Of a stretch of 64,000 nt of DNA, positions 25,700-64,000 are shown piece after piece; position 1 is the first letter of the stretch, and the number at the start of each line of letters is the position of its first letter. This DNA is from Patescibacteria group bacterium (GTDB lineage: Bacteria > Patescibacteriota > Minisyncoccia > Minisyncoccales > Staskawiczbacteraceae). Both the position numbers and the translations under genes were made by a program. The DNA is taken from positions 35,693-99,692 of the forward strand of contig JBBTQL010000004.1 in NCBI GenBank assembly GCA_038065715.1, in the 5' to 3' direction. A model generated the notes under the pieces. That model saw only the letters and a list, made by a program, of their open reading frames with translations. It was not told the origin of the DNA and made no database searches.

Positions 25700-25739
25700 C
25701 AGTCTGGGGGGGGGGATTAAAAGCTGAGTTATTTTGATT

Positions 25740-26726: not shown

Positions 26727-26752
26727 TCTATTTTGTGTTAGAATTAAAAATC

Positions 26753-28024: not shown

Positions 28025-28199
28025 TGAGGGGGTGAGAGATTTATTCTCAAGGACAGAATAGTTCTTAATGAAGGAGGTTTATGCATATGCCTAGCTTCAC
28101 ATTGTCCGAATCTAGTTTAAACAACAGGCCAAGAGCGTTGAGAATTATATACCCCCTCATCAAAAAAACCATCCTTCGATAAACTCAGGATGGTTTTTT
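28025..28199 (+). ncRNA. candidate small RNA / sORF-bearing transcript (33-aa ORF 28081-28182)
   Basis: Promoter and terminator ~175 nt apart; 5' GAGGGGGT pairs with 3' ACCCCCTC; internal strong SD AAGGAGGT then ATG; stop lies inside terminator stem. Confidence 0.35.
28169..28199 (+). terminator. rho-independent terminator (CCTTCGATAA-loop hairpin family)
   Basis: CCATCCT-TCGATAAACTC-AGGATGG then TTTTTT; near-identical hairpin at 36926-36955. Confidence 0.6.
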
Positions 28200-38045: not shown

Positions 38046-38403
38046 ATTATTTTAGTGGAAGCGCCGGGGTCGAACCCGGGTCCAGAAATTTTTTAAAAAT
38101 AAATCTACAAATTTATCTTGCTTTGTTGTTTGGATATTAAATAAGAAGCAAGAAAAATGTTTAATATCCTAATTCTCGTAAATCTCGACAGTTCCCCGAG
38201 AAATAAAACTGCCTATCCTGAAAATATAACACCCTCGGTCCATTTATCAGGAGTCAATGGCGAGGATGCAGCATTAAGCTAAAGCTAGTGCTGGTTGCCT
38301 ATTAAATAAATTAGCAATTATGTTTTTTCTATAAGTTTAACCAGGTTATAGAAAACTGGATTTGCATATTTTTAATGAAACATCTGTCAAAACTTACGCT
38401 CCC
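38046..38403 (-). ncRNA. ssrA: tmRNA (SsrA)
   Basis: Minus-strand 5' GGGAGCG pairs with 3' CGCUUCC-A; tRNA-like T arm GGTTCGACCCC; internal tag frame GCT AAT TTA TTT AAT AGG CAA CCA GCA CTA GCT TTA GCT TAA (ANLFNRQPALALA*); starts 2 nt after smpB stop. Confidence 0.75.
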
Positions 38404-39830: not shown

Positions 39831-41482
39831 TAAAAGAAGAAATAAAAAAAATAGTGGAAAACTCAATTAAAAACCTGCAAAAACAGGGCGCATTTTTAAA
39901 ATTAAAAATGCCAGAAATTTTAATTGAGCGGCCTAAAGAAAAAATACGCGGTGACTATTCAACCAACATTGCCTTTGTAATTGGAAAAGATGTTTTGAAA
40001 AATCCATTTGAAACGGCATTGCTTTTGAAAACAGAAATTGTCTCGCTTTGCGAGATCTCGCGCAGCGAGAAAAAACAAAAATCTGTAATAGAAAAAGTTG
40101 AGGTAGTGGGAGGGTTTATTAATTTTTTTGTTGCTGACGATTATTTTAAAAATCAGCTGCAAATTATTTTAAAACAAAAAAACAAATTTGGAGATTTAAA
40201 ACTTGGTAAAAGTCAAAAAGTAAACATAGAATTTATTTCTGCAAATCCAACAGGGCCGTTAACTTTAGGAAACGGCAGAGGAGGATTTTGTGGCGATGTT
40301 TTGGCTAATGTTTTAGAAAAAGCAGGATATAAAGTTGAAAGAGAATATTATATTAACAATACCGGAGCTCAAATTAAAAAACTTGGGCATTCTGTAATTG
40401 GAGATGCAGAAGCTGTTTACAAAGGAAAATATATTATTGATTTAAGAAACAAAGTTAAGGGAGATGACCCCGAGAAAGTTGGAGAAAAATCGGCAAAAAT
40501 TATTTTAGAAAAAATGATAAAGCCGTCTGTAAAAAAAATGGGAATTAAATTTGACACATGGTTTTCAGAAAAAACTCTCTATAAAAATAAAGAAGTAGAT
40601 AAAACAATACAAGAATTGGCTAAAAAAGGGTTCACCTATGAAAGCGAAGACGCTGTGTGGTTTAAATCTAAAGAATTGGGCGATGACAAAGACAGGGTTT
40701 TGGTGAGAGCCGACGGAATTAAAACATATTTTGCTTCAGATATTGCTTATTTTAAAAATAAATTTAAAAGAGGGTTTGGTAAACTTATTATGTTTTTGGG
40801 AGCCGACCACTATGGATATGTTCCGAGGCTAAAAGCTGCCTCGCTTGCTTTTGGTTTTAAAAAAGACAGTATTGATGCTATTGTTATGCAGTTGGTGCGG
40901 CTTTATGAAAAAGGCAAAGAAGTAAGAATGGCAAAAAGGACTGGTATTTATGTAACAATAGATGAGTTAATTGGCGAGGTTAGTTTGGATGTTGCCAGAT
41001 TTTTCTTTTTAATGATAAGCCCTAATACCCACATGAATTTTAATTTGGATTTAGCAAAAGAAAAATCAGAGAAAAATCCGGTTTTTAAAGTGCAATATGC
41101 GCATGCCCGAATTTGCTCAATTTTCCGAAAATTTGGAAATTTCAAATTTTCCCGATTTCATCGAGGATCCTCAATGGCAAAGCCATCGGGACAAATTTCA
41201 AATTTAAAATTATTAAATGAGCCGAGCGAGTTAGGGTTAATTAGAGAATTAATTAAACTTCCAGAAATTATTGAAGAGATAGCTAAAGATTATCAAGTTC
41301 AAAGACTACCGCAATACGCAATGGATTTAACTGATGCATTCCATAGATTTTATGAAAACTGTAAAGTCCTGAGCGAAGTCGAAGGATTGCGTGATGCCCG
41401 CTTGTCTCTTGTTATGGCAACAAAAATTGTTTTAAAAAATACATTAGACTTAATGGGAATATCTGCTCCTGAAAAAATGTGA
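39827..41482 (+). CDS. argS: arginine--tRNA ligase
   Basis: SANPTGPLTLGNGRGG class I motif; C-terminal DALK-type anticodon-binding domain; in-frame AAATTT-type repeat plus GC hairpin insert 41108-41190. Confidence 0.9.
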   Translation: MIKEEIKKIVENSIKNLQKQGAFLKLKMPEILIERPKEKIRGDYSTNIAFVIGKDVLKNPFETALLLKTEIVSLCEISRSEKKQKSVIEKVEVVGGFINFFVADDYFKNQLQIILKQKNKFGDLKLGKSQKVNIEFISANPTGPLTLGNGRGGFCGDVLANVLEKAGYKVEREYYINNTGAQIKKLGHSVIGDAEAVYKGKYIIDLRNKVKGDDPEKVGEKSAKIILEKMIKPSVKKMGIKFDTWFSEKTLYKNKEVDKTIQELAKKGFTYESEDAVWFKSKELGDDKDRVLVRADGIKTYFASDIAYFKNKFKRGFGKLIMFLGADHYGYVPRLKAASLAFGFKKDSIDAIVMQLVRLYEKGKEVRMAKRTGIYVTIDELIGEVSLDVARFFFLMISPNTHMNFNLDLAKEKSEKNPVFKVQYAHARICSIFRKFGNFKFSRFHRGSSMAKPSGQISNLKLLNEPSELGLIRELIKLPEIIEEIAKDYQVQRLPQYAMDLTDAFHRFYENCKVLSEVEGLRDARLSLVMATKIVLKNTLDLMGISAPEKM

Positions 41483-41536
41483 AATTTAGCTATGCTGAAT
41501 TTCATCCTGAGCTATTGCGAAGGATAAATTATTACT

Positions 41537-51951: not shown

Positions 51952-52821
51952 ATGAAATTTTTGATAAATCTTTTCAAGCTTACAAGACCACTAAGCAATG
52001 TAAAAAACATTGCAATAGTTGTCCTAGCTTTTTATTTTTCAAAAAAGGGATTTGATTTATGGCTGTTTTCAGGTTCTCTGATTTCTTTATCGTTGGTCTG
52101 CTCGGCTTTTTATGCCTATAACACTTTATCTGACTTTGATTTAGATAAAGATAATAAAAATAAAAAGCATTATCTGGAGGCGGTTAATTATTTTGGAAAA
52201 AATAAAAGTTTTATTATTTTTATAACTCTTTTAATTGCGGGGCTGTTCATCGGATATTTTATAAATTTATACTTTTTTATATTTTTATTGCTTTTAGCTT
52301 TAACCGATTTTTCATACTCTTTTAAGTATACTCGGTTTAAAGAAAAATTTATTTTAGATATATTGTTTGGCGCTTCTTTTACTTTTTTATTCAGATTTCT
52401 TGCTTTTTGGTTTGTTTTTTCGTCTGCCTTTCCGCCATTGTTGGTTGTGGCAGGATTGGTTTTTGCCAAAAGCGGAGGATATTTTTTGTATAAATCATTG
52501 GATTATCAGTATTTACTAAAAGAAAACATAAAAAATTCAATAACAATTTTAAATCAAAAAACAAAAATTATTGTTTCTATTTTATTTTGGGTTATTGCCC
52601 TCATTTCTTTTATATTTTTGTGCTTTAATTCTTATTTTAAAATCGGATTGATTGGAGAGCTTCCTTTTAAGTTTTTGTTTTTAGGGCTACTTGCAGTTCC
52701 TCCACTTGCTGTAATTTATCTTTCAGTTTTCGGAAAGATTAAAATAAAAATTAAAAATTTAAGAACTGCAGGATACATTTATTGGGCGGCAGTTTTGGCC
52801 ACTACCTTAACTTTTATATGA
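51952..52821 (+). CDS. UbiA family prenyltransferase
   Basis: N-terminal LTRPLSNVKN; Asp-rich NTLSDFDLDKDNK; multi-TM. Confidence 0.55.
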   Translation: MKFLINLFKLTRPLSNVKNIAIVVLAFYFSKKGFDLWLFSGSLISLSLVCSAFYAYNTLSDFDLDKDNKNKKHYLEAVNYFGKNKSFIIFITLLIAGLFIGYFINLYFFIFLLLLALTDFSYSFKYTRFKEKFILDILFGASFTFLFRFLAFWFVFSSAFPPLLVVAGLVFAKSGGYFLYKSLDYQYLLKENIKNSITILNQKTKIIVSILFWVIALISFIFLCFNSYFKIGLIGELPFKFLFLGLLAVPPLAVIYLSVFGKIKIKIKNLRTAGYIYWAAVLATTLTFI

Positions 52822-53330
52822 AAAAAGGATTTATTAGAAATTTATTGCCTGACCATAGGTTTGAAAAAATTATAGATATTATGTCGGATTTTTTTTCAGG
52901 CAGTCAGCTTGTTATTTTTGATTTGGATAATACGCTGGTTTTTTCTGAAAAAACAGAATCGACAAAAGAAATTATTAATTGGATAGCTTCTATTAAAAAC
53001 AGATACAAGTGCGTATGTATATCCAACAGCAGAACTGCCAAAGATAGAGCTCAGAAAATTTCAAAAGCGCTTGACATTGATATTTTTTTAAGCAAAGAAA
53101 AAAAGCCATCAAAAAAGTTATTTGAGGAAATCAAAAAAAAATATAATTTAGGAAATGGCAAAATATTTGTTGTTGGCGACAGAGTTTTTACAGATATTTT
53201 GTTTGGCAATTTAAATGGGGCGGCAACTGTCTTAATAAAACCTTTAAGCAGGAAAGAAAATATTTTAATTAAAATTATAAGGAAAATTGAAAACGCAATT
53301 CTTTTTTTAGTCAATTTAATATATACTTAA
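52818..53330 (+). CDS. HAD family phosphatase (YqeG-like)
   Basis: LVIFDLDNTLV motif I and VVGDRVFTDIL motif III. Confidence 0.7.
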   Translation: MKKGFIRNLLPDHRFEKIIDIMSDFFSGSQLVIFDLDNTLVFSEKTESTKEIINWIASIKNRYKCVCISNSRTAKDRAQKISKALDIDIFLSKEKKPSKKLFEEIKKKYNLGNGKIFVVGDRVFTDILFGNLNGAATVLIKPLSRKENILIKIIRKIENAILFLVNLIYT

Positions 53331-53335
53331 AATAT

Positions 53336-54607
53336 ATGTATAAAAAAACAACATTAAAAAACGGATTAAGGGTGATAACAATTCCAATGGAAAACGCCAA
53401 TAGTGTTACTGTTTTAATCTTGGTTGGCACAGGTTCAAAATATGAAACAAAAGACATAAACGGCATTTCTCATTTTTTAGAACATATGTTTTTTAAAGGC
53501 ACTGAAAAAAGGCCAACCACTTTAAAAATTGCCGAAACCTTAGATATGGTTGGCGGCGAATATAATGCTTTCACATCAAAAGAAATTACTGGATTTTGGG
53601 CTAAAGTAGATAAAAAACACACAGATGTTGCTTTAGACTGGATATCTGATATGTTTTTAAATTCTAAATTTGACGAAAAAGAAATAGAAAGAGAAAAAGG
53701 AGTAATAATAGAAGAGGTAAATATGTATTTAGACACCCCAATGGCCTATGTTGGAGAATTATGGGAAGATTTGCTTTACAAAGACCAGCCGGCCGGCTGG
53801 CGGGTTATAGGCGAAAAAGAAAACATACTGAACTTTAACAGAAAAAAAATTATAAATTATTATAAAAATCATTATTCGCCAAAAAATACAATAATTTGCG
53901 TGTCGGGAGGCATTGAGCAAGATAAAATTGCATCAAAAATACAGAGTTATTTTTCCCCCTTCGGGGGATCCGCCGTAGGCGGAAAAGTTAAAGTAAAAGA
54001 ATACCAAAAAGAGCCTGAAATATTGTTTCACCATAAAAAAACAGACCAGACCCATTTTTGTTTAGGGGTAAGGGCATACGATATGTTTCATCAGCAAAAA
54101 TATGCTTTGGTTTTACTGGCTATTATTTTGGGGGGAAACATGAGCTCGCGTCTTTTTATTAAAGTAAGGGAAAGAAGCGGTTTGGCTTATTCTATTCACA
54201 CATCTGTTGACGCTTCTACTGACACCGGATATTTGGTCACGCAAGCTGGAATTGACCATAAAAATTTAGAAAAATCAGTAAAGCTTATTTTACAGGAATA
54301 TAAAAACATTAAAGATACAAAAATTACAGAAAGAGAATTGCAAAAGGCAAAAGATTATTTAAAGGGAACTATGTCTTTGTCTTTAGATTCGTCAGACAGC
54401 CAAGCTTCTTTTTATGCCGTGCAAGAATTGCTTGAAAAGGAAGTTTTATCTCCTGAAGAAAAGTTTAAAAAAATTGACACAGTTTCTGTAAATGATATAA
54501 AAAAGGTAGCAGAGGATATATTTTTACCAGAAAAGTTGAATTTGGCAGTTATCGGCCCGTTTGAAGAAAATAAAAAAGAAGAGTTTAAAAAAATACTAAA
54601 AATATGA
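53336..54607 (+). CDS. M16 family zinc peptidase
   Basis: HFLEHMFFKGT (HxxEH) zinc-binding motif; 423 aa; in-frame double UUCG-type hairpin insert 53955-53982. Confidence 0.85.
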   Translation: MYKKTTLKNGLRVITIPMENANSVTVLILVGTGSKYETKDINGISHFLEHMFFKGTEKRPTTLKIAETLDMVGGEYNAFTSKEITGFWAKVDKKHTDVALDWISDMFLNSKFDEKEIEREKGVIIEEVNMYLDTPMAYVGELWEDLLYKDQPAGWRVIGEKENILNFNRKKIINYYKNHYSPKNTIICVSGGIEQDKIASKIQSYFSPFGGSAVGGKVKVKEYQKEPEILFHHKKTDQTHFCLGVRAYDMFHQQKYALVLLAIILGGNMSSRLFIKVRERSGLAYSIHTSVDASTDTGYLVTQAGIDHKNLEKSVKLILQEYKNIKDTKITERELQKAKDYLKGTMSLSLDSSDSQASFYAVQELLEKEVLSPEEKFKKIDTVSVNDIKKVAEDIFLPEKLNLAVIGPFEENKKEEFKKILKI

Positions 54608-55635
54608 GCCAAAGCCAAACATTGGACATTTCTTGGGAAGCTATAATAAAAATATTTATAGCAATTTTTGTTTTATATATGATTTATTTGGCGCGGAATA
54701 TCGTCCTTTGGTTTTTCTTTGGGCTGGCAATATCTGTTTTATTGGATCCTGCAATTAATTTTTTAAGAAAGCTATGGATACCTAAAATGCTGGCAATAGT
54801 TGTGATTTATTTTTCTATTTTTGGATTATTAGGAATTTTAATTTATTTAATGGCGCCTCTTTTTATAAGCGAGTTAAAGCAATTTTCCAGTTATTTGCCT
54901 GATTATTTTAATCAAATAAATCCGGTTTTGCAAAAATTCGGGATAGATGCCGCCCAAAGCTTTAACGAATTTATCGGTTCGCTGGTAGGCGGGTTAGAGC
55001 AAAGTTCAAGGGGAGTGATGGACGCATTATTCACATTCTTTGGAGGGTTATCTTCAACTGTTATTATTTTAACAATAGCCTTTTTTCTATCGCTGGAAGA
55101 CAGGGGCCCAGAAAAGTTTTTGGCGCTGGTTTCGCCTAAAAAATACCAGGATAAAATTGTTTTATTTTTTGAAAAAGCCCAGACTAAGGTTGCAGGATGG
55201 TTTGGCGCAAGGATAATTGCCTGTCTTTTTGTGGGAGCAGCATCTTTTATAGTATTTTATATTTTTAACATAAAATACGCCTTTTTATTGGCATTAATTG
55301 CCGGTATTTTTAATTTTGTTCCATATATAGGACCGTTAATAACCGCTATTTTGCTGATTGTATTTGTTTTTGTTTCTGCCGGATCTTGGCTTATTACAAT
55401 GTATATTTTGCTGGCTATTTGGGTTGTTCAGATAATAGAAAATAATATTTTAACTCCTTTTTTAATGAAAAAAATGATAGACATTCCGCCAGTTTTAGTT
55501 TTAATATCTTTGCTGTTTGGAGCCAAAGTTTTTGGTTTTTTGGGGACTATATTTGTAGTGCCAGTTTTTGGAATTATATATGAATTTACAAAAGAGATGC
55601 TGGAAAAGAGAAAAGAAGAAACGTTTTCTGATTAA
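54604..55635 (+). CDS. AI-2E family transporter (PerM/YhhT-like permease)
   Basis: 343 aa, eight TM helices, family-typical topology. Confidence 0.7.
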   Translation: MSQSQTLDISWEAIIKIFIAIFVLYMIYLARNIVLWFFFGLAISVLLDPAINFLRKLWIPKMLAIVVIYFSIFGLLGILIYLMAPLFISELKQFSSYLPDYFNQINPVLQKFGIDAAQSFNEFIGSLVGGLEQSSRGVMDALFTFFGGLSSTVIILTIAFFLSLEDRGPEKFLALVSPKKYQDKIVLFFEKAQTKVAGWFGARIIACLFVGAASFIVFYIFNIKYAFLLALIAGIFNFVPYIGPLITAILLIVFVFVSAGSWLITMYILLAIWVVQIIENNILTPFLMKKMIDIPPVLVLISLLFGAKVFGFLGTIFVVPVFGIIYEFTKEMLEKRKEETFSD

Positions 55636-56078
55636 AATTTTAATAAAATAACAGAAATAATAATTATTATAATCTGGCTTGAAATTCTCCATAAGTTGGA
55701 GATTTTTTTGTGTTTTAGAAAATGGTTTTTTTCGTGAAAATTACTATGAATTTGCAATAATCTGTTTCTAAAAATCATATTTAAAATATTAAGTATGTCG
55801 GGCAGGACGGCAAAAAAAGCCACTATAAAAATTATTGGCTGGCTGTTTGAAAATATTAAAATAAGAAGTATTCCAAGAGAAAAATCCAGGAATACTCTTA
55901 AAAAATCCGGGAAAGCTTTAAGCCATTGCCTATTTTTAATATTTTCAATAGGATATTCAATATGGGGAATAGCATCTAAAATATAATGGCTTAAAAAGCT
56001 TAAAGTTATTGATAGTGGAATATATTTTATTTTAGAAGCAATAACAGCCCCTAAAAGCAGGTGCGCAATTAAAATCAT
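55632..56078 (-). CDS. membrane protein, hypothetical (boundaries uncertain)
   Basis: 148 aa hydrophobic ORF; 3' part reads through AT-rich region containing a hairpin, so C-terminus doubtful. Confidence 0.3.
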   Translation of the reverse strand: MILIAHLLLGAVIASKIKYIPLSITLSFLSHYILDAIPHIEYPIENIKNRQWLKAFPDFLRVFLDFSLGILLILIFSNSQPIIFIVAFFAVLPDILNILNMIFRNRLLQIHSNFHEKNHFLKHKKISNLWRISSQIIIIIISVILLKF

Positions 56079-56135
56079 ATGAAATTTAATAAAAAAATGA
56101 TAAAATCAACTTAAACCAATTAGACCTATTATACT

Positions 56136-57569
56136 ATGTTTGGCAAAAAGAAAAAGTTTTATATAACGACAACTTTGCCCTATGTTAATGCCGACCCGCA
56201 TCTCGGCCATATTTTAGAATTTGCGCAAGCAGATGTGGCTGCGCGATATCATAAGTTATTAGGCTATGATGTATTTTTTAATACAGGCGTTGACGAGCAC
56301 GGATTAAAAATTTATCAAAAAGCGCAGGAAAGAAAATTAGATCCGCAGGAATATTGCGATATTTATGCTAAAAAATTTGATAATTTAAAAAGCGCGTTTA
56401 ATCTAAGCTATAATAGTTTTATTAGAACCACAGACGAACATCACATTAAAGCCGCGCAAGAATTTTGGCGACGATGCCAAAAGAACGGGGATATTTATAA
56501 AAAAATATATAAAATAAAATATTGCATCGGCTGCGAATTAGGAAAAACTGAATCAGAAATAGTTGGCGGCAAATGCCCCATACACCCAAATTTAGAAATA
56601 GAAATTATTGAAGAAGAAAATTATTTTTTTAAGTATTCAAAATATCAAAAATCACTTTTAAATTTTTATAAAAAAAATGCAGATTTTGTTGTTCCAGAAT
56701 CAAGATTTAACGAAATAAAAGAATTTACTAAAAGAGGTTTGGAAGATTTTAGCATATCCAGACTAAAAGAAAAAATGCCATGGGGCGTTCCAGTTCCCGA
56801 TGATAACAATCATATTATGTATGTTTGGTTTGATGCCCTTGTAAATTATATTTCTGCTTTAGGCTGGCCTGAAAATTCAAAACAATTTAAAGATTTCTGG
56901 CCAGGACTCCAAATAGCAGGAAAAGACAATCTTCGCCAGCAGTCTTCAATGTGGCAAGCTATGCTTATGTCTGCTGGACTGCCAAATTCAAAACAGATTT
57001 TTATTCATGGATTCATTACGGTAAATGGGCAAAAAATGTCAAAGAGCTTGGGAAATGTAATTGACCCGTTTGAGTTAGTAAAAAAATATGGAACAGATGC
57101 CGCGCGTTATTATTTATTGAGAGAGATTTCTCCAACAGAAGACGGCGATTTTACTTATGAAAAATTTGAGCGAAGATATAATTCAGATTTAGCTGGAGGA
57201 ATAGGAAATTTAGTTGCAAGAACAATGGCTCTGTTTTTAAAACTGAATATAAAGACAAAAAAACCAAGCTTGTTTATAAAAAAGGCAGTAGAAAAGGCCA
57301 ATAAAGATTGTTTTGGCTTTTTAGAAAATTACAAATTCAGCGATTCATTAAAATCAATTTGGGAGCTTATTTCTTTTTGCGACAAATATATAAATAATGA
57401 AAAGCCGTGGGAAAACAATGGCAGTTCTTTGCAAGTTATTTCAGATGTAATTTTTGCTTTGGAAAATATTGTAGAATTATTGAGTCCATTTTTGCCAGAA
57501 ACATCAGAGAAGATTAAAAAAATAATTAAAGCCGGAAAAAATTCAGAAATTCTATTTCTAAGGATTTAA
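56136..57569 (+). CDS. metG: methionine--tRNA ligase
   Basis: HIGH motif PYVNADPHLGH; KMSKS as KMSKSLGN; zinc knuckle CIGC...CPIH. Confidence 0.9.
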   Translation: MFGKKKKFYITTTLPYVNADPHLGHILEFAQADVAARYHKLLGYDVFFNTGVDEHGLKIYQKAQERKLDPQEYCDIYAKKFDNLKSAFNLSYNSFIRTTDEHHIKAAQEFWRRCQKNGDIYKKIYKIKYCIGCELGKTESEIVGGKCPIHPNLEIEIIEEENYFFKYSKYQKSLLNFYKKNADFVVPESRFNEIKEFTKRGLEDFSISRLKEKMPWGVPVPDDNNHIMYVWFDALVNYISALGWPENSKQFKDFWPGLQIAGKDNLRQQSSMWQAMLMSAGLPNSKQIFIHGFITVNGQKMSKSLGNVIDPFELVKKYGTDAARYYLLREISPTEDGDFTYEKFERRYNSDLAGGIGNLVARTMALFLKLNIKTKKPSLFIKKAVEKANKDCFGFLENYKFSDSLKSIWELISFCDKYINNEKPWENNGSSLQVISDVIFALENIVELLSPFLPETSEKIKKIIKAGKNSEILFLRI

Positions 57570-57600
57570 AGGTGTTTTTTAGTTGTACTTGTTGACGCTA

Positions 57601-57629
57601 TTGACTTTATTTTAGCATTATGATATCAT
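57601..57629 (+). promoter_or_regulatory. sigma70-like promoter (TTGACT-17-TATCAT) with leader hairpin
   Basis: Good hexamers, 17-bp spacer; 5' UTR hairpin AACTCTTT...AAAGAGTT; RBS AAAGGAGAG before csrA. Confidence 0.45.
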
Positions 57630-57698
57630 AAAAGTAACTCTTTATTTCAGTCAAGATGACCGAAAAGAGTTAGACCCCCCCAGAAAGGAGAGTGCAAG

Positions 57699-57953
57699 AT
57701 GCTGGTTTTGTCCCGCAAGAAGAACGAGAGCATTGTCATCAACGACGATATCACGATTGTCGTGATAGAAATCCGCGGCGACAAGGTTCGCCTCGGCATT
57801 GATGCGCCAAAAGAGGTGCCTGTCCACCGGCGCGAAGTGTTTGACGCGATACGTCGCGATGATGCTTCAGCAGCTAGTACGGGGATTAAAACCTCCGAGA
57901 CCCCCGATAATCTGGAGGATCCCGCCGAGGAAAGCCCTCAAGACCCAGGTTAA
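57699..57953 (+). CDS. csrA: carbon storage regulator CsrA (GC-atypical, extended acidic tail)
   Basis: MLVLSRKKNESIVINDDITIVVIEIRGDKVRLGIDAPKEVPVHRREVF matches CsrA; ~55% GC; 30-aa Pro/Asp/Glu tail. Confidence 0.8.
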   Translation: MLVLSRKKNESIVINDDITIVVIEIRGDKVRLGIDAPKEVPVHRREVFDAIRRDDASAASTGIKTSETPDNLEDPAEESPQDPG

Positions 57954-57990
57954 TTCTTGGGAACACAGCACAAGGCGCGAAAGCGCATAA

Positions 57991-58018
57991 CGGATAACCG
58001 CTGGTTATCCGTTTTTTT
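57991..58018 (+). terminator. rho-independent terminator
   Basis: CGGATAACC-GCT-GGTTATCCG then TTTTTTT. Confidence 0.6.
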
Positions 58019-58036
58019 ATTTGTTATTATAAAAAC

Positions 58037-58945
58037 ATGATTATTGATACACATTCTCATTTAAGTTTTAAGGCATATGATAGCGATAGAGATGAGGTTA
58101 TAAAACGCACTCAAAAAGAGGGTGTTGTTTGTATTGATGTTGGCACAAAATATGAAACAAGCAAAAGGGCAGTTGAATTAGCAGAAAAATATGAAAATAT
58201 ATATGCAGCCGTTGGAATGCATCCAATTCATATAAAAACAGATTTATTAAAATTAAAATTAGACAAAGAAGAGGGCGCATTTGCTCCGCTTGGCGAAGAG
58301 TTTGATAAAGCGAAATACAGAGAACTTGTTATAAATAGTGAAAAAAAAGCCGAAGGTCCTAACTCGAGAAGGACCGAAGGCTCTGAGGAGCTAAAGCGAC
58401 GAAGAGTGGTAGCGGTTGGTGAAATTGGATTAGACTATTATTATAAGCCAAAAGGAACAGCTAAAAAAGAACAATTTAAAGAAAAACAAAAACAAGTTTT
58501 TTTACAGCAATTAGAATTGGCAGAAGAATTAAATTTACCGGTAATTGTTCATTGCAGAATGGCGCATCAGGATGTTATAGAAATTTTGAAAAATAAAAAT
58601 GTTGAAGGAGTTATTCATTGTTTCACAGGAAATTGGGAAGAAGCGCAAAAATATATAGATTTAGGATTTTATATTGGCTTAAACGGAATTATTTTTTCTG
58701 CCCTAGGCAGACCCGCCTCGGGCGGGAAATTACCGCTAGATGATGTTGTTACGCAGTGTCCCCTAGATAAAATTTTAACAGAAACAGATTGCCCATATTT
58801 AACACCCTTGCAGGAAAACGGAAAAAGAAACGAACCGATTTTTGTAAAACACGTTATTCAAAAAATCGCTGACTTAAAAAGTGTTAGTTTCGCCGAAGTT
58901 GCCGACAAAACTACCCAAAACGCCAAAAAATTATTTAATATTTAA
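58037..58945 (+). CDS. tatD: TatD family deoxyribonuclease/hydrolase
   Basis: MIIDTHSHLSF; metal-binding His/Glu/Asp pattern; in-frame GC hairpin insert ~58348-58400. Confidence 0.85.
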   Translation: MIIDTHSHLSFKAYDSDRDEVIKRTQKEGVVCIDVGTKYETSKRAVELAEKYENIYAAVGMHPIHIKTDLLKLKLDKEEGAFAPLGEEFDKAKYRELVINSEKKAEGPNSRRTEGSEELKRRRVVAVGEIGLDYYYKPKGTAKKEQFKEKQKQVFLQQLELAEELNLPVIVHCRMAHQDVIEILKNKNVEGVIHCFTGNWEEAQKYIDLGFYIGLNGIIFSALGRPASGGKLPLDDVVTQCPLDKILTETDCPYLTPLQENGKRNEPIFVKHVIQKIADLKSVSFAEVADKTTQNAKKLFNI

Positions 58946-58956
58946 AACAAAAAAAG

Positions 58957-58989
58957 ACCGCCCTTAGACTTTGCTCAAGGCGGTTTTTG
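58957..58989. terminator. bidirectional terminator
   Basis: ACCGCC...GGCGGT stem then TTTTT; between convergent tatD and 58999 gene. Confidence 0.5.
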
Positions 58990-58998
58990 ATTCGGAGA

Positions 58999-59337
58999 TC
59001 AACGGTCCACAATGCGCGTAACACACCATTCTTTCAAAACATCTTCTGACACACTATAAACAATGGTGTATACCGTTTTTCCGTGTTCATCTTTTGATGT
59101 TAGCACGGCCATGTTTTTTTTGAAGTCGGCGAAGTATAAGTTGTATGTTACACCTGCTTTGATCATCTCGCCTTCGGAAACAGGATTTTGAGATTTGACC
59201 ATTTCCATGATTGTCAAAGAAAGTTGGTCAATTTGACGCTGTTGGTCAATAAATTGTCCCATAAGAGTGACATAAACAATCGTCACAGTTACAAGAAAAA
59301 CACCAAAATGTGTTGGGGCAGTAAGAATTCTTTTCAT
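58999..59337 (-). CDS. membrane-anchored hypothetical protein
   Basis: 112 aa; N-terminal TM; GGAGG RBS on minus strand; moderately elevated GC. Confidence 0.45.
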   Translation of the reverse strand: MKRILTAPTHFGVFLVTVTIVYVTLMGQFIDQQRQIDQLSLTIMEMVKSQNPVSEGEMIKAGVTYNLYFADFKKNMAVLTSKDEHGKTVYTIVYSVSEDVLKEWCVTRIVDR

Positions 59338-59467
59338 TTCACACCTCCGATGGTTGAAAACCTTGTTTAAAGAGGCGAAATGCCTCTTTGTTTGTGCTGG
59401 TTGAAGATTATCATATTATTATATTAATGTCAAGATTTACCAGATCAAATAATTCTGTTATTATTAT

Positions 59468-62014
59468 ATGAATATGGCAAAATATAATCCTCAAAAAATT
59501 GAGAAGAAATGGCAAGAGGCTTGGTATAAATCAAGCATTTTTAAAGCTAAAAACGGGTCTAAAAATAAGAAATTTTACCTTTTAGTGGAGTTTCCTTATC
59601 CTTCGGGAGACGGGCTTCATGTCGGCCATTGCCGAAGCTATACTGCCTTAGATATTATTGCCAGAAAAAAAAGAATGCAGGGATTTAATGTTTTATTCCC
59701 AATGGGCTGGGACGCTTTTGGATTGCCAACTGAAAATTATGCCATAAAAAAGGGAGTACACCCGTCTGTTGTGACAAAAAAGAATACAGATAACTTTAGG
59801 CGGCAGATGAAAAGTTTGGGGCTTTCTTTTGACTGGAGCCGAGAAATAAATACCACAGACCCAAAATATTATAAATGGACGCAGTGGATTTTTTTGCAGT
59901 TATTTAAAAATAACTTGGCTTATAAAGATAAAATTGCAATCAACTGGTGCCCTAAAGATAAAATTGGATTGGCAAATGAAGAAGTGATAAATGGCAAATG
60001 CGAAAGATGCGGCGCAAAAGTTGAAAAAAGAGATAAAGAGCAATGGATGATAAAAATTACAAAATATGCCGACAGATTAATTGAAGATTTAAATTTAGTT
60101 GATTATTTAGAAAAAATAAAAATACAGCAGAAAGATTGGATAGGCGAGTCACATGGAGCGTTGATAAAATTTTCGTTAGAAGGAAGCGAAGAATTCATAG
60201 AAGTTTTTACAACCAGAATAGACACAATATTTTCTGGCACGTTTTTAATTTTATCTCCAGGACACAATTTTATAGATAAATATAAAAATAAAATTGAAAA
60301 CATTGATGAAGTTTTAAAATATAGAGAAACCGCAAAAAATACTTCTGATATAGATAGAACTAATCAAGATAAAGATATTACAGGAGTGGAATTAAAAGGA
60401 ATTACAGTAAAAAATCCTGCCACAAATGAAGAAATGCCAGTTTGGACAGCTGATTTTGTTTTAGAGCAATACGGAACAGGAGTCGTTTTTGCTGATGCCC
60501 ATGATAAAAGAGATTTTAAAATGGCAAAAAAATATGGGATACCTTTGCGAACTTCAATAAAACCAGAAAATGAACTATCGGCGCAAAAAGCAAAAAATTT
60601 GGAAGAATGTTTTGAGGGCGAAGGCGCTCTTTATAATTCTATGCATTTTGACGGCTTAACTTCTTCTGAAGCCCGACCTAAAATAATTTCTTGGTTAAGG
60701 GAAAAAGGATATGCGGAAAACAAAATAAGCTATAAGCTTCGAGATTGGGTTTTTTCGCGCCAGCATTATTGGGGCGAGCCAATACCAATGATTTTTTGCG
60801 TAAAATGCGGTTGGCAGGCTGTTTTAGAAAAAAATCTGCCCGTTGAATTGCCTAAGGTAAAAAAATATCAGCCAACAGATACAGGCGAATCTCCTCTTTC
60901 TGCTATTGAAAAATGGGTAAATGTAAAATGTCCAAAATGCAAAGGACCGGCAAAAAGAGAAACAGACACAATGCCTAATTGGGCAGGTTCAAACTGGTAT
61001 TACTTGGCATATACTATGCCAAAAATTTCAAATTTCAAATTTCAAATTTCAAATTCTGCGAAAGAATTTTCGCAGTGGATGCCAGTTGACTGGTATAATG
61101 GCGGAATGGAGCACACAACTTTGCATTTATTGTATTCAAGATTTATTTTTAAATTTTTATGGGATATTGGAGCTGTTCCAAAAATAATTGGGGCAGAACC
61201 ATATAAAAAAAGAACTTCGCATGGAATGATTTTAGGCGAAGGGGGAATTAAAATGTCAAAGTCAAAGGGAAATGTAATAAATCCAGATTCAGTTGTGAAA
61301 CAATATGGAGCCGACACCTTAAGAGTTTACGAAATGTTTATCGGGCCTTTTGAGCAAATGATTCCTTGGGATATAAAGGGGGTTGTTGGTTCGCGCAGGT
61401 TTTTAGAAAAAATTTACAACTTAGTTTTGAAGAAGGCAATTCCGGCAAAAATCCCGACGGTCTCGCCGTCGAGGACCCGCGACGAAGTCGGGGCAGAAGA
61501 AAATTTTAAAAAACTTTTGCATAAAACAATAAAAAAGGTTGGTGACGATATTGAGGCAATGAAATTTAACACAGCAGTGAGCTCTTTAATGGAATTTGTA
61601 AATGCATGGAGCATTGCTGAAAATAGTTTAGATAAACCAGCCTCCGATAAAGGCTACGGCTTGGCGAAGAAAGATTTGCAAGAATTTTTAAAGATTTTGT
61701 CGCCTTTTGCCCCGCATTTGTCAGAAGAGCTTTGGCAAAGAGCTGGATTTAAAGGTTTGTGCTGCGCTCAAAAATGGCCTAAGTATGACGAAAAATTAAT
61801 TGAAGAAAAAAACATATTGCTTATTGTGCAAATTAACGGTAAAGTTAGAGATAAAATAGAAGTTAACGCAGGCATTACTCAAAAACAAGCTGAAGAAATA
61901 GTTTTAAAATTAGAAAAAATTAAAAACCGTATAACTAATATTAAAGAAGTGGAAAAAGTTGTTTTTGTGCCAGGTAAGTTAATAAATTTTGTGACTATTG
62001 ACAAGGATAAGTAA
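59468..62014 (+). CDS. leuS: leucine--tRNA ligase
   Basis: HVGHCRSY (HIGH), KMSKSKGN; 848 aa; in-frame (AAATTTC)4 array 61023-61057 and GC hairpin insert 61453-61494. Confidence 0.9.
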   Translation: MNMAKYNPQKIEKKWQEAWYKSSIFKAKNGSKNKKFYLLVEFPYPSGDGLHVGHCRSYTALDIIARKKRMQGFNVLFPMGWDAFGLPTENYAIKKGVHPSVVTKKNTDNFRRQMKSLGLSFDWSREINTTDPKYYKWTQWIFLQLFKNNLAYKDKIAINWCPKDKIGLANEEVINGKCERCGAKVEKRDKEQWMIKITKYADRLIEDLNLVDYLEKIKIQQKDWIGESHGALIKFSLEGSEEFIEVFTTRIDTIFSGTFLILSPGHNFIDKYKNKIENIDEVLKYRETAKNTSDIDRTNQDKDITGVELKGITVKNPATNEEMPVWTADFVLEQYGTGVVFADAHDKRDFKMAKKYGIPLRTSIKPENELSAQKAKNLEECFEGEGALYNSMHFDGLTSSEARPKIISWLREKGYAENKISYKLRDWVFSRQHYWGEPIPMIFCVKCGWQAVLEKNLPVELPKVKKYQPTDTGESPLSAIEKWVNVKCPKCKGPAKRETDTMPNWAGSNWYYLAYTMPKISNFKFQISNSAKEFSQWMPVDWYNGGMEHTTLHLLYSRFIFKFLWDIGAVPKIIGAEPYKKRTSHGMILGEGGIKMSKSKGNVINPDSVVKQYGADTLRVYEMFIGPFEQMIPWDIKGVVGSRRFLEKIYNLVLKKAIPAKIPTVSPSRTRDEVGAEENFKKLLHKTIKKVGDDIEAMKFNTAVSSLMEFVNAWSIAENSLDKPASDKGYGLAKKDLQEFLKILSPFAPHLSEELWQRAGFKGLCCAQKWPKYDEKLIEEKNILLIVQINGKVRDKIEVNAGITQKQAEEIVLKLEKIKNRITNIKEVEKVVFVPGKLINFVTIDKDK

Positions 62015-62201
62015 ATATGCTATGATTAATAATACAGCTCTTTTTAAGTGAAAATACTTGCAAAAACAGCGGTTATAGCCAAAAGCGACCGAAGGTCGTC
62101 CTGAGCAGAGCCGAAGGACAACAAATCGGTATTTTCTGGCTATGACTGCTATGGTAGTAGTCAAGCGAAATGGTGAAACCCTAAAGAAAGGAAAAAGCAC
62201 C

Positions 62202-62822
62202 ATGTCGTACGACAAGCAGACAGCCGAGTTCATCGCCACTGTGGTGCAGAACATCCCCAAAATGTCAGGCGATGTTATGCAGGGTTGGATTGGGAATCCA
62301 AAAGCGCTACAGAAGCTCCTCTTGGGTCTATGCCCTTCTGTCAATGAGCCCAAGGAAGTCTCGTTGCTCCGCAAGCTCGCCAGCGTTCAGGTGGAGGGCG
62401 TTGCAAGATTCGTCGTTGACGACGATACCCTGCAGGCGGCCAACATCGGCTGGACTGGCGACAACTTCAAAAAGTTTTTCGCCAAGAAGGTTGAGGAGGA
62501 TGTTCCCGCCTGCGCTATCGCTGTTCACCGGCTGGAACGCGCGTCTTCGGATGCGCCCATTCTCACCGAACTCGGTGACCGCGCCGAAATCAGCCTCGCG
62601 CACCTGTTCGAGCTGATCAAAAAGCAGTCCAAGGGCGAAACTGGCCAGTTGTTGGTTAATGGTTATGCGAATGTCGCATATGTCCGTGGAACCGATGGCA
62701 ACCTCTGGGCTGTGCTTGCGGCCTGGCGCTCTTACTGCGGTTGCTGGGGTGTCGAGGCTGACTCGGTTGAGGATCCGGACGGGTGGCGCGGTAGCCGCCG
62801 GATTCTCTCCCGCGATTCTTGA
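62202..62822 (+). CDS. DGR target protein 2 (variable C-terminus)
   Basis: ~206 aa from ATG 62202 after AAAGGAAAAAG RBS (the 62142 start lies in conserved leader); ~58% GC; C-terminal ...LWAVLAAWRSYCGCWGVEADSVEDPDGWRGSRRILSRDS in VR. Confidence 0.7.
   Translation: MSYDKQTAEFIATVVQNIPKMSGDVMQGWIGNPKALQKLLLGLCPSVNEPKEVSLLRKLASVQVEGVARFVVDDDTLQAANIGWTGDNFKKFFAKKVEEDVPACAIAVHRLERASSDAPILTELGDRAEISLAHLFELIKKQSKGETGQLLVNGYANVAYVRGTDGNLWAVLAAWRSYCGCWGVEADSVEDPDGWRGSRRILSRDS
62704..62813 (+). other. DGR variable region VR2
   Basis: 110 nt aligning with TR2; 21 mismatches, all at TR adenines. Confidence 0.8.
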
Positions 62823-63164
62823 AACTTAATCCTTTTGGGATTTTGGATCTTGAATCCTTTGAATCTATGGCTCTCTGAAACTTTGAAAAAAGTAGTAAGA
62901 GAGCCTTTTTGTTTTGTGAAAAAGTAATGTAGAATAAATCTAAGGAATGCTAAGTATGAAGGCTACGGCTTTCATAAAGCGCTCCGAAAATGTATATTGC
63001 AGAATTATTGCGGATACGTCTTCAATAAGAGTTGATATACATATTTCAAAAAAAGAAAAGAATCGGTGTGGCGTGCTGGCGGACTTTGAGGTCCCAAATA
63101 AGATACAGCCCCTAGAGTATTCAAAGGGCAGTGGCATTGATGGCGCGTTGCATATTAATTAGGG

Positions 63165-63274
63165 TCTGGGCTGTGAATGCGAACTGGAACTCTAACTACG
63201 GTTACTGGAATGTCGAGGCTAACTCGGTTGAGAATCCGAACAGGTGGAACGATAGCAACCAGATTCTCTCCCGC
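63165..63274 (+). other. DGR template repeat TR2 (non-coding)
   Basis: A-rich near-copy of VR2; upstream CAAAGGGCAGTGGCATTGATGG element conserved with DGR-1. Confidence 0.8.
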
Positions 63275-63642
63275 TACTGTTTTCTTTCTTCCGCTTTTAT
63301 CGCGGAAGTTTTGCTTATTATTCCTTTTTTCCAGCCACCGATTATCTTACCAATGCCTTCTATCTCAGCGCCAAGCGAGATATATTGTTTATTAGAAACG
63401 AGTTTTGTTTCCCATAAAAGCTGAAAGAAAAAACGCAACGAATCAATTTTGTCCGATGTCGCTTCAAGCAAAACAAGTTTTTTATTTATTGGCGTATACG
63501 TAGCTTTTCTTAATAACTCAAGAAGATCTAAAAATAAAATATCTACTTTAGTCCCGATTCCGAACCGCGCGATTCGTTCAATATTGCGATGCACTTCCAT
63601 CCACTGTTTATATATCAATTTGGATTTTTGCAAAACTGGCAA
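63274..63642 (-). CDS. Avd-like accessory variability determinant
   Basis: 122 aa; TTG start; paralog of 25340-25699; ...EIEGIGKIIGGW motif. Confidence 0.6.
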   Translation of the reverse strand: MPVLQKSKLIYKQWMEVHRNIERIARFGIGTKVDILFLDLLELLRKATYTPINKKLVLLEATSDKIDSLRFFFQLLWETKLVSNKQYISLGAEIEGIGKIIGGWKKGIISKTSAIKAEERKQ

Positions 63643-63685
63643 CAGTCTGGGGGGGATTAGAAGAATAACTATTTATATTTTGATT

Positions 63686-64000
63686 ATGAAAATTGTTTTG
63701 AAACATAAATATGAATATTTAATTAGCGTTAATAATTTATTGGAAGCGTGGACAGAATTTATCAAGGGGAAGCGCAACAAAAGCGATGTTCAGATTTTTT
63801 CATTTCATTTAATGGATAATATTTTACAACTTCATTGTGATTTAAAAAATGGCACATATAAGCATGGAGGCTATCAACAATTTAAAATCAACGACCCAAA
63901 ACCAAGGATAATTCACAAAGCCAGCGTAAAAGACAGATTATTGCACCACGCAGTATATCGTATATTATACCCGTTTTTTGATAAAAAGTTCATTGCAGAC
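63686..64000 (+). CDS. DGR reverse transcriptase, N-terminal part (3' end beyond window)
   Basis: MKIVLKHKYEYLISVNNLLEAW...KINDPKPRIIHKASVKDRLLHHAVYRILYPFFDKKFIAD nearly identical to RT at 25740. Confidence 0.8.
   Translation, partial: MKIVLKHKYEYLISVNNLLEAWTEFIKGKRNKSDVQIFSFHLMDNILQLHCDLKNGTYKHGGYQQFKINDPKPRIIHKASVKDRLLHHAVYRILYPFFDKKFIAD

Follow-up and report, generated by a model that had tools for sequence, protein, structure and literature searches.

A second DGR of the CPR type in a Patescibacteria genome and the covarying RNA around its template repeat

The DGR-2 locus

The right-hand end of the window (the whole 64,000-nt stretch of Patescibacteria DNA that was analysed) holds the cassette DGR-2, whose paralog DGR-1 is found 38 kb further upstream. 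Its target gene is preceded by a promoter at 61998–62026 on the forward strand (TTGACA, 17 nt, TATGAT, with TG upstream; 11/12 matches) that is conserved with the DGR-1 counterpart at 24031–24059, and nearly all sister loci likewise have a near-consensus promoter ahead of the target. The 5'-UTR leader contains a hairpin at 62068–62150 (forward strand; arms 62068–62092 and 62126–62150), whose apical loop carries a 27-nt insert (62094–62120) that is a copy of a dispersed CCTTCG...CTCAGG element. The earlier note had placed this element in the leader, and it was found there at 62100–62117 in minus orientation, as one of six copies in the window where 0.01 would be expected by chance. The DGR-1 leader has the same hairpin with a loop of 6 nt (the two leaders agree at 81% over 53 nt, in addition to the common hairpin), and long 5'-UTR hairpins are common among sister loci.

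The Target-2 gene itself (62202–62822, forward strand; MEK7658413.1, locus tag AAB352_00930) encodes 206 aa and is followed by an intrinsic terminator at 62869–62912 on the same strand (GGCTCTCT...AGAGAGCC and then TTTTT), with strong terminators at the equivalent position in sister loci. Some gene callers prefer an in-frame ATG at 62142; the sole exact match of the resulting 226-aa form is a 980-nt contig. The gene has a GC content of 54% and a GC3 of 0.68, and across the clade the DGR target genes are GC-rich islands (GC3 ~0.7 vs ~0.3). This jump in GC3 is systematic and unexplained. Target-2 has 84 homologs, all unannotated, and a comparison of 58 homologs shows conserved VR framework residues with variable positions between, on the scaffold LWAVxAxWxSxxxxWxVxAxSVExPxxWxxxxxILSR. 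Searches of Target-2 for a Pfam FGE-sulfatase match, a recognisable domain or a membrane anchor were negative, as was a sequence-profile search for a PDB match. In the structural model, the C-terminal two-thirds are predicted to form a divergent version of the C-type-lectin fold that ends in the VR; a Foldseek search with this model gave no PDB match, and the model matches include the DGR variable protein TvpA.

The variable repeat VR2 (62704–62813, forward strand) encodes the ~37 last residues of Target-2 and ends 9 nt before the stop codon, and the template repeat TR2 lies at 63165–63274 on the same strand. An ungapped comparison of the two bore out the earlier claim that they differ only at template adenines: all 21 mismatches fall on TR adenines (hypergeometric P=2.3e-16, TR2 having 29 A in 110 nt), with 14 A->G, five A->C and two A->T substitutions. 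Every one of the 29 TR2 adenines occupies codon position 1 or 2, and AAY codons make up 10/36 of the total. Homology between the repeats ends on both flanks. The final substituted position of VR2 is 62800, after which a 13-nt invariant GC-rich tail leads to the end of homology and makes an IMH-like boundary. Directly 3' of VR2, an interrupted palindrome of CTTGG/CTTTG-type units (62814–62856, forward strand) spans the stop codon at 62820–62822. It is absent after TR2, and analogous structures in sister loci likewise follow the VR only. Since it follows the VR but not the TR, the palindrome may be a hairpin or cruciform by which the target is recognised, in analogy to the Bordetella DGR, where an inverted repeat lies downstream of the IMH (PMC5758913).

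On the opposite strand, avd-2 (63274–63642) encodes 122 aa from a TTG at 63642; gene callers choose an internal ATG, giving 106–108 aa. Its matches to NCBIfam DivGenRetAVD (E=1.4e-15, 57 bits, below the curated cut-off of 80) and Pfam bAvd (E=2.9e-9, 37.8 bits, below the curated cut-off of 40) are both sub-threshold, and the protein is assigned as Avd because the profiles are covered over their full length and the synteny is conserved in 74 loci. It has its N-terminus, MPVLQK, in common with Avd-1, and an exact-protein look-up gave no match. The divergent junction between avd and RT (63643–63685, 43 nt) contains the conserved motif GGCAACAGTCTGGGGGGG, whose G-run lies at 63649–63655. The motif is confined to DGR-2, DGR-1 and eight close relatives, and an exact 51-nt scan of metagenome contigs for the junction returned nothing.

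RT-2 starts at 63686 on the forward strand and is cut by the window end at 64000. The full gene (326 aa, window-equivalent end 64666) was reached through the 90% protein cluster of Target-2, which led to an independent 139.5-kb contig, L083, that is 100% identical to the last 11.8 kb of the window (52202–64000). The complete RT-2 matches RVT_1 (E=2.1e-24) and contains the motifs IRYADDFVIL (YADD) and LPLGNLTSQ (LGNLTSQ), so that the RT continues past the window as had been anticipated, and is followed by housekeeping genes. On L083, LeuRS lies upstream of DGR-2 and pyruvate:ferredoxin oxidoreductase genes lie downstream; DGR-2 is therefore chromosomal. The module order proposed earlier was recovered in full, with a DGR-1-like leader, a GC-rich target, TR2, a minus-strand Avd at 63274–63642 and an RT from 63686.

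More than 551 RT relatives occur in Patescibacteria genomes. Among the best 80 obtained with RT-1 as query, identities are 54–74%, and nearly all come under titles of Patescibacteria/CPR MAGs or of unclassified bacteria; a few of these 80 have odd bin labels. Every related locus that could be checked has its RT beside a TR/VR pair. Both the TR-(avd)-RT order and the divergence of avd from RT hold in 74/74 sister loci with upstream sequence, and in about 60 related loci the VR and TR are spaced by 360–560 nt and the TR abuts the 3' end of avd. The sister-locus VR/TR pairs were collected by an adenine-tolerant diagonal scan, whose scoring favours A mismatches and so biases the adenine fractions upward. 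An unbiased seed-based finder, which misses heavily mutated pairs including the window's own, recovered about 40 real sister pairs with mismatches almost exclusively at A sites.

An assembly artefact, or an ordinary duplication that diverged at random, would be another source of the likeness between VR2 and TR2, given that the window ends in an RT-2 stretch 98% identical to RT-1 and that several short assemblies break beside the VR. This reading is next to impossible and was refuted by the adenine specificity of the differences, for which the probability is given above, together with the 139.5-kb contig, which matches the whole cassette and runs through RT-2 into the housekeeping genes. The same layout in the ~60 loci of other genomes and the identity of the pair in several independent assemblies likewise argue against duplication during assembly.

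A folded RNA around the template repeat

TR2 is set in a structured RNA on the forward strand. Its 5' domain (63006–63164) is supported by covariation and is matched by a covariance model at 63008–63166 with 136 bits. It comprises P0, a hairpin with a UACG loop (63006–63029), an A-rich strand (63051–63059), the 12-bp helix P1 (63066–63077 with 63142–63153), and the short helices P2 (63081–63084 with 63091–63094) and P3 (63108–63111 with 63126–63129). The A-rich strand is the 5' strand of a long-range duplex, S, whose 3' strand lies at 63280–63288, and by this pairing S brackets TR2. Directly after TR2, hairpin T (CTTCCGC...GCGGAAG) and its U-tract occupy 63288–63318 of the forward strand, within the antisense of the avd-2 C-terminal tail. 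By its sequence hairpin T looks like an intrinsic terminator of the TR-RNA, and it could also be an Avd-binding stem-loop.

Comparison of the sister loci supports this fold at several levels. In helix S, which was recovered by an unbiased helix scan, 7/9 pairs show changes in both partners, with pairing in 85% of cells; all seven pairs of hairpin T covary. Over the 37 pairs of the structure, 90% are paired against 72% in shuffles, and the covariation score is 0.62 against 0.26 in shuffled alignments (0/500 reach 0.62) and 0.11–0.21 in slid controls. RNAalifold reports compensatory changes in 20/22 pairs. Within the window the covariance model hits the two pre-TR sites and nothing else, and each of 10 held-out loci gives a single hit; the model can locate TRs in fragmentary CPR assemblies. 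Neither the TR flanks nor the leader match an Rfam family, a gathering score being reached only by a tmRNA elsewhere in the window, and an Rfam E-value scan of 61950–63750 gave chance-level matches only.

The conserved element between target and TR could instead be a small protein-coding gene, since ORFs of 70–71 aa overlap it in both cassettes and a 68-aa gene is called at this position in L083–L085. This is very improbable. Despite conservation of the DNA, BLASTP fails to align the two ORFs even at E<=100, a stop-free frame is present in only 18/60 loci and in inconsistent frames, loop indels are not multiples of three, and the variation tracks base-pairing rather than codons. The small ORF over the 5' domain was rejected as a gene on the grounds of covariation, absent BLASTP alignment and frames that are not kept, and the element does not code for protein.

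A consensus promoter search for the TR-RNA performed no better than on shuffled sequence, and the candidate at 62971–62998 is doubtful, as it overlaps a possible outer stem of P0. In a helix search of the TR 3' end against its flanks none was found, and no primer:template duplex or priming adenosine was identified. No description of a conserved folded TR-RNA was met in the part of the CPR DGR literature that was covered.

Two paralogous cassettes and the VR2 allele

The relationship of the two cassettes differs from module to module. The earlier note had put RT-1 and RT-2 at ~85% identity at the N-terminus; the likeness is real and the figure slightly high, with 80% amino acid identity over the first 105 residues, 78% between the full RT-2 and RT-1, and 78% nucleotide identity over 300 nt. 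At the nucleotide level this identity is a mosaic, varying from 60 to 94% per 90 nt and reaching 91–98% over 63866–64000 and 98% over 63911–64000. Avd-1 and Avd-2 are only ~40% identical. The two targets had been described as unrelated outside the VR scaffold, and they indeed have no sequence similarity, which extends further than was claimed, as none is detectable even in the VR scaffold. From the models, Target-1 and Target-2 probably share the C-type-lectin fold. Each VR matches its own TR only. The two targets may diversify independently, but no VR variant was found in any assembly or in the 90% protein clusters.

The similarity of the RNA 5' domains and proteins raises the proposal that the cassettes are not independent, with the RT/Avd pairs cross-reacting on each other's TR-RNAs and gene conversion homogenising the paralogs. 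Both 5' RNA domains fit one covariance model with 117–136 bits, and the mosaic identity of the RTs is suggestive of conversion. Nevertheless, the two cassettes have different sequences in duplex S and P1 (AAAGAAAA/UUUUCUUU vs AAAUGAAGA/UCUUCAUUU), and both the low identity of the Avds and the strict pairing of each VR with its own TR point the other way, making such exchange distinctly unlikely. DGR-1 and DGR-2 are a clean paralogous pair in one small genome, directed at two unrelated target families, and so offer a natural system for studying how the specificities of RT, Avd and RNA are kept apart.

With high confidence, DGR-2 is read as a complete chromosomal DGR of the CPR lineage, of type B3, with its TR in a covarying RNA and with mutagenic homing that is presumed to be Bordetella-like. 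By analogy with the Bordetella system, a ~310-nt plus-strand TR-RNA would be bound through its structured flanks by a complex of RT-2 and Avd-2, with the bracketing duplex S possibly acting as the 'cPRT Stop' duplex does there. RT-2 would then copy TR2 into cDNA, misincorporating opposite adenines, and this cDNA would replace VR2, with recipient and donor presumably told apart by the VR-only palindrome and the invariant GC-rich 3' boundary. As a result, up to ~16 codons for the ligand-binding face of Target-2, which would be an intracellular or unanchored 206-aa protein, would be expected to vary.

The alleles that have been sequenced allow another possibility, that DGR-2 is intact but silent or rarely active and that mutagenic homing in the past has left VR2 as an effectively fixed allele. 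At least six independent assemblies agree in VR2, as do all assemblies that carry it (L001, L082–L086 and the window), and the differences between assemblies carrying DGR-2 are all in LeuRS. The 90%-identity protein cluster of Target-2 contains start-codon variants only, a database of 15 billion proteins holds no near-identical VR2 variant, and VR variants are also absent for Target-1 and for a Target-2 homolog present on nine contigs. Silence of the element is possible on these data but somewhat unlikely. No assembly shows a VR2 variant, but these are consensus sequences, mostly from one aquifer well, in which minority variants are invisible, and the RT motifs, Avd, codon placement of TR adenines and RNA helices are all intact. 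Moreover, L001, L082 and L086 break 53–119 nt past VR2, and breaks at this point can reflect the VR/TR repeat or heterogeneity among reads. A complete, intact element remains the preferred reading, and it may be active at present.

DGR-2 among known systems

DGRs are enriched in CPR bacteria. Wu et al. 2018 (PMC5758913) define the B3 type by the order TR-(avd)-RT, in which avd is encoded on the reverse strand, and assign 90% of CPR DGRs to it; DGR-2 has this organisation, with TR2, a reverse-strand avd and the RT in that order and the target upstream. In the same source (PMC5758913), the antisense Avd appears as a trait of B3 DGRs in general, and it is hence not peculiar to the window. DGR-2 further resembles CPR B3 DGRs in its small RT (~326–330 aa), its chromosomal location and its relatives in Patescibacteria. 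Elements of this type are already common in ultra-small groundwater bacteria, so that the element itself is ordinary; nothing essential separates it from the CPR B3 DGRs and it is therefore filed as a member. DGR-2 is confirmed as a genuine DGR and a further example of a well-documented CPR type. For DGR clade 2, which is restricted to Patescibacteria, Roux et al. 2021 (PMC8144416) report targets in which neither a domain nor a membrane anchor is recognisable, and the short Target-2 is alike in both respects. RT-2 may fall in this clade, for which the titles of its 80 best relatives, nearly all Patescibacteria/CPR or unclassified, give indirect support. The genome differs in carrying two such cassettes, 38 kb apart and with targets of different families; according to Wu et al. 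2018 (PMC5758913), most DGR-bearing complete genomes have a single DGR, a figure of ~10% being reported for the minority with more.

In comparison with the prototype, the DGR of Bordetella phage BPP-1 (mtd-avd-TR-brt), DGR-2 has the same adenine-specific transfer from TR to VR, the same Avd accessory protein, a VR at the C-terminus of a protein with a C-type-lectin fold (a modelled fold in DGR-2), an invariant GC-rich 3' boundary of the VR and an inverted repeat that follows the VR but not the TR. However, avd lies upstream of the TR and on the same strand in BPP-1, whereas in DGR-2 it lies between TR and RT on the opposite strand. DGR-2 is also chromosomal in a cellular genome of ~33% GC, and its target is a 206-aa non-phage protein encoded in a GC-rich gene island.

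The Bordetella DGR RNA consists of 20 nt upstream, the TR and a 140-nt Spacer (Handa et al., bioRxiv 10.1101/2023.10.23.563531). In both systems the TR is flanked by structured RNA with a duplex between upstream and downstream strands (the 'cPRT Stop' in Bordetella, helix S in DGR-2) and a stem-loop just 3' of the TR (Avd-binding in Bordetella, hairpin T in DGR-2); both also have a hairpin with a UNCG-type tetraloop and A-rich segments that are conserved and single-stranded. The large structured domain, in contrast, lies 3' of the TR in Bordetella and 5' of it in DGR-2 (~160 nt), which gives the impression of a permuted layout. Duplex S has its upstream strand ~115 nt ahead of the TR, beyond the 40 nt surveyed by Handa et al. 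(bioRxiv 10.1101/2023.10.23.563531). The 3' flank of the DGR-2 RNA is only ~45 nt long and ends in a terminator-like U-tract, with no large downstream spacer domain as in Bordetella, where that spacer carries the priming adenosine; none was identified for DGR-2.

The chances are about even that the TR of CPR B3-type DGRs is in general carried by a compact ~310-nt noncoding RNA, permuted relative to that of Bordetella, in which a 5' P0–P3 domain replaces the 3' Spacer, a duplex clamps the TR and a terminator-like hairpin sits inside the avd antisense, and which would be a new family if undescribed. What is offered is a covariation-backed structure of a CPR DGR RNA with its structured domain 5' of the TR, whereas the only experimentally solved DGR RNA has it 3', and this structure bears on how general the Bordetella priming and stop mechanism is. 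If the general reading is true, either the priming site would be placed differently or the RT-Avd-RNA particle would be assembled in another way, and, if also undescribed, the RNA would be a new structured-RNA family with hundreds of Patescibacteria genomes carrying it. As judged from the part of the literature covered, a second property of the clade that would then be undescribed is the GC-rich, codon-atypical make-up of the target genes.

With regard to the variable protein, the nearest known counterpart is TvpA of Treponema denticola, which has a C-type-lectin / FGE-sulfatase fold and is among the matches of the Target-2 model. Unlike TvpA and other such DGR variable proteins, between which and Target-2 there is no sequence similarity, Target-2 has a smaller domain and a different VR scaffold.

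Architecture and repeat divergence of the second cassette

The second diversity-generating retroelement (DGR-2) begins with a near-consensus promoter (TTGACA-17-TATGAT with TG, 61998-62026, forward strand) and a 5'-UTR hairpin (62068-62150, forward) common to its paralog DGR-1 (24099-24152). These are followed by the Target-2 ORF (62202-62822, forward), which carries the variable repeat VR2 (62704-62813, forward), with an interrupted palindrome and then a strong terminator on the 3' side of VR2. A spacer of about 250 nt separates this terminator from the template repeat TR2 (63165-63274, forward), beyond which lie antisense avd (63274-63642, reverse; Pfam bAvd E=2.9e-9, NCBIfam DivGenRetAVD E=1.4e-15) and the reverse transcriptase gene RT-2 (from 63686, forward). 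The module order of leader, GC-rich target, TR, antisense avd and RT is thus as an earlier note had described it from the sequence, and its reading of the locus as a second DGR paralogous to DGR-1 is correct. A 43-nt junction (63643-63685) separates the divergent avd TTG and RT ATG. The TTG is apparently the avd start, without an obvious ribosome-binding site, and the avd/RT junction bears a motif, GGCAACAGTCTGGGGGGG, with a 7-10-nt G-run that occurs only in DGR-1 (25703-25739), DGR-2 (63643-63685) and their eight closest relatives.

A repeat finder returned a direct repeat of 117 nt at 79% identity (62704-62820 versus 63165-63281). Over the 110 nt aligned in the earlier note, VR2 and TR2 differ at 21 positions, every one a TR adenine, as had been claimed, and similarity collapses on both sides of the repeat. 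With 29 adenines among the 110 nt of TR2, the chance of 21 random mismatches all falling on A is 2.3e-16. All 29 occupy codon position 1 or 2 in the VR reading frame, and 10 of the 36 TR2 codons are AAY. Of the 21 TR2 adenines that are substituted, 14 read G in VR2, 5 read C and 2 read T, and the 3' end of VR2 is a 13-nt invariant GC-rich tail after the last substituted position. DGR-1 behaves in the same way (VR 24741-24866, TR 25208-25333), with 21 of 22 mismatches at adenines. VR2 was therefore written by past homing, with 21 of its 29 template adenines changed.

Duplication during assembly does not account for the VR/TR similarity, as the locus recurs at 100% identity to window 52202-64000 in L083, which is taken from a 139.5-kb ENA contig of groundwater from Hainich (well H43). 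This sequence extends past the window end, where RT-2 continues to a full length of 326 aa (RVT_1 E=2.1e-24) with a YADD box (IRYADDFVIL) and an LPLGNLTSQ motif, followed downstream by pyruvate:ferredoxin oxidoreductase genes and other housekeeping genes. RT-2 and RT-1 share 78% amino-acid identity. When the full RTs are compared (L083 11485-12465), their nucleotide identity is a mosaic along the gene, ranging from 60 to 94% per 90 nt and reaching 98% over the window's last 90 nt; it is 53-80% in the first 180 nt and 91-98% in the next 135 nt (63866-64000 versus 25920-26054). This mosaic pattern suggests gene conversion between the two paralogs, and is a likely reason for breaks in assemblies. 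L001, L082 and L086, three short assemblies obtained independently for the same population, end 53-119 nt after VR2 (window 62875-62932), and appear to be broken by DGR repeats or VR heterogeneity. Owing to such breaks, DGR targets may be undercounted on short contigs.

A search for Target-2 homologs returned a 100% identical protein, in a cluster that includes MEK7658413.1 on a 271,864-nt MAG contig. Activity was judged from consensus alleles in assemblies. The VR2 allele is identical in every assembly carrying the gene, the few between-assembly differences being located in LeuRS, and the 90% cluster of Target-2 contains start-codon variants only. Single alleles were likewise found for Target-1 and for a 61%-identical Target-2 homolog present on nine contigs. 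The allele data show past homing and not present turnover, so that an element that is intact but currently quiet is a live alternative, favoured by the single VR2 allele.

Target leaders, proteins and base composition

The apical loop of the DGR-2 leader hairpin carries an insert of 27 nt that is absent from DGR-1. The inserted nucleotides are one copy of the dispersed element CCTTCG-N-CTCAGG, and the copy that the earlier note had placed in the leader is present at 62100-62117 on the reverse strand. The element, a short GC-rich hairpin of the form (A)TCCTTCG-N(5-6)-CTCAGGA, has six copies in the window versus 0.01 expected, the others lying at 26892-26909, 28173-28189 and 36471-36488 (forward) and at 41368-41385 and 41506-41523 (reverse). 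At least one copy falls within an ORF (26735-27031), where it encodes ...SFDAAQD.... A second GC-rich palindromic repeat family, TCCCGAnnnnATCGAGGATnCTC...TCGGGA (D7 and D12 of the repeat finder; 8226-8300, 21284-21333 and 41147-41221), is unrelated to DGRs. In many loci (for example L009, L018, L043, L044, L048, L054, L067, L068 and L072), the stretch from a near-consensus promoter to the target start codon contains a long 5'-UTR hairpin of 15-26 bp. The stem sequence differs between loci, and small repeat elements are inserted in some of the apical loops (L002, L054 and the window's DGR-2). ATG 62202 was taken as the Target-2 start because an AAAGGA motif lies upstream, because the NCBI annotation MEK7658413.1 (206 aa) uses the same ATG, and because the in-frame ATG 62142 falls within the 3' arm of the leader hairpin and its DGR-1 equivalent opens an ORF of only 14 codons.

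Target-2 has no match in Pfam or NCBIfam. Its 84 homologs are all unannotated proteins of about 190-240 aa, and the source, where one is named for a few of them, is Patescibacteria or unclassified bacteria. When aligned, the homologs have a variable N-terminal region of about 60 residues, then a conserved core, then the VR scaffold, LWAVxAxWxSxxRxWxVxAxSVExPxxWxxGxQVLSRD, in which framework residues are fixed and the intervening positions vary among homologs. The Target-1 family is far larger (>1,647 proteins). The two targets had been described as unrelated outside the VR scaffold. The absence of sequence homology outside it stands; however, no similarity is detectable in the scaffold either, by BLASTP (E=5.2) or profile-profile comparison (probability 1.6%). 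A low-confidence model of Target-1 (pLDDT 68) retrieves the same set of C-type-lectin structures as Target-2, including TvpA and Mtd, and the two proteins, while lacking detectable homology anywhere, therefore probably belong to the same fold class.

The two target genes have a GC content of 48-58%, against a window average of about 33%, and a GC3 of 0.68 (Target-2) and 0.75 (Target-1) versus 0.24-0.34 for avd, RT, LeuRS and a MurE-like gene. Across 53 loci (window 62202-62703 and 24219-24740 plus 51 sister loci, L002-L080), mean GC is 54% in the target outside VR, compared with 39% for avd and RT and 43% for the upstream flank, and target GC exceeds that of avd and RT by more than 8 points in 49 of them. 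Both A and T are depleted in the target genes, which excludes simple adenine erosion as the source of the excess. The target genes of DGRs in this CPR clade form GC-rich islands, a second clade-wide by-product beside the RNA that carries TR.

A structured RNA around the template repeat

A conserved block lies just 5' of TR in both cassettes, and at a fixed offset in sister loci. In a 60-locus alignment of this block, a 12-bp helix (P1) encloses two hairpins (P2 and P3), with compensatory double changes in 20 of the 22 predicted pairs. On the 5' side of P1 are P0, a hairpin with a UACG-type loop, and then an A-rich strand. In every locus TR is followed on its 3' side by a conserved linker, then by a GC-rich hairpin of 7-11 bp with a stem sequence that differs among loci, and finally by a U-tract, the hairpin being located inside the antisense of the poorly conserved C-terminal tail of avd. 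The A-rich strand and the linker are complementary (AAAUGAAGA/UCUUCAUUU in most loci, AAAGAAAA/UUUUCUUU in DGR-2).

The resulting five-helix structure (37 pairs) was scored on a 48-sequence alignment of the joined TR flanks. Paired cells amount to 90% versus 72% in column shuffles, and the covariation score is 0.62, a value that 0 of 500 shuffles reach, versus 0.26 in shuffles; controls with partners slid by 1-3 columns score 0.11-0.21. Pairs with changes on both sides number 7 of 9 for the long-range duplex and 10 of 12 for P1, and they include every pair of P2 (5), P3 (4) and the 3' hairpin (7). When five-pair helices were sought by an unbiased scan, the same five came out and no other had comparable support. 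A covariance model of the 5' domain matches the window only at 63008-63166 and 25051-25217, and in each of ten held-out loci it finds one site (E 1e-13 to 6e-34), on the RT strand upstream of avd.

No Rfam 15 family matches the element; a tmRNA gene (38053-38403, reverse; RF00023, 112 bits) is the sole family in the window to reach its gathering score. Gene calls of 68-71-aa hypothetical proteins cover the 5' domain (62947-63162, 24978-25190 and L083 10755-10961). They share no similarity between the two cassettes, and most sister loci carry stop codons in all frames; the calls are probably spurious, since they are not conserved as protein. No consensus promoter for the RNA was found in the VR-TR spacer, its best scores (6-10 of 12) resembling shuffled sequence, whereas target promoters score 10-12 of 12. 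The RNA may therefore be transcribed from a promoter that has only a -10 element, or be produced when transcription reads through the target terminator.

Comparison with known DGRs

RT-1 has more than 551 relatives on GTDB contigs (one genome per species), and the best 80 of these are almost all from Patescibacteria MAGs. Among these 80, avd is on the opposite strand to RT in all 74 loci having sequence upstream of RT, 15-155 nt from the RT start, except for one locus where the matches overlap by 2 nt. A VR/TR pair was detected in 58 of the 74 and in both window cassettes, with TR ending 3-120 nt before the avd 3' end and a VR-to-TR spacing of 360-560 nt (682 nt in one locus). This order corresponds to architecture B3, 'TR-(avd)-RT', which makes up 90% of the CPR set of Wu et al. 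2018 and is nearly absent elsewhere (PMC5758913). DGR-2 also fits the description of DGR clade 2 of Roux et al. 2021, which is restricted to Patescibacteria and has targets usually without a recognisable or transmembrane domain (PMC8144416). Antisense avd is hence not unusual in this lineage, and DGR-2 is a real DGR, ordinary for its lineage and of a kind already known.

No description of the TR-RNA was found in the literature searched, which did not cover the primary CPR DGR paper. In the Bordetella phage DGR, the 'cPRT Stop' duplex forms between 20 nt upstream of TR and the 140-nt Spacer downstream of it, and the same Spacer contains the adenosine used for priming, the elements that bind RT, a UNCG stem-loop and, directly after TR, a stem-loop bound by Avd (bioRxiv 10.1101/2023.10.23.563531). 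The survey of other DGRs in the same paper covered the 40 nt before TR and the 100 nt after it, and the examples shown are from Bacillota, Cyanobacteriota and Pseudomonadota (10.1101/2023.10.23.563531). Like the Bordetella RNA, the CPR RNA has its TR clamped by a duplex between the flanks and a stem-loop directly after TR; the helix search placed no primer:template duplex in it. However, it carries its large domain 5' of TR, about 115 nt separate TR from the upstream strand of its clamp, and its short 3' flank has a terminator-like end. The clade-wide by-product is thus a covariation-supported DGR RNA laid out unlike the one solved example.
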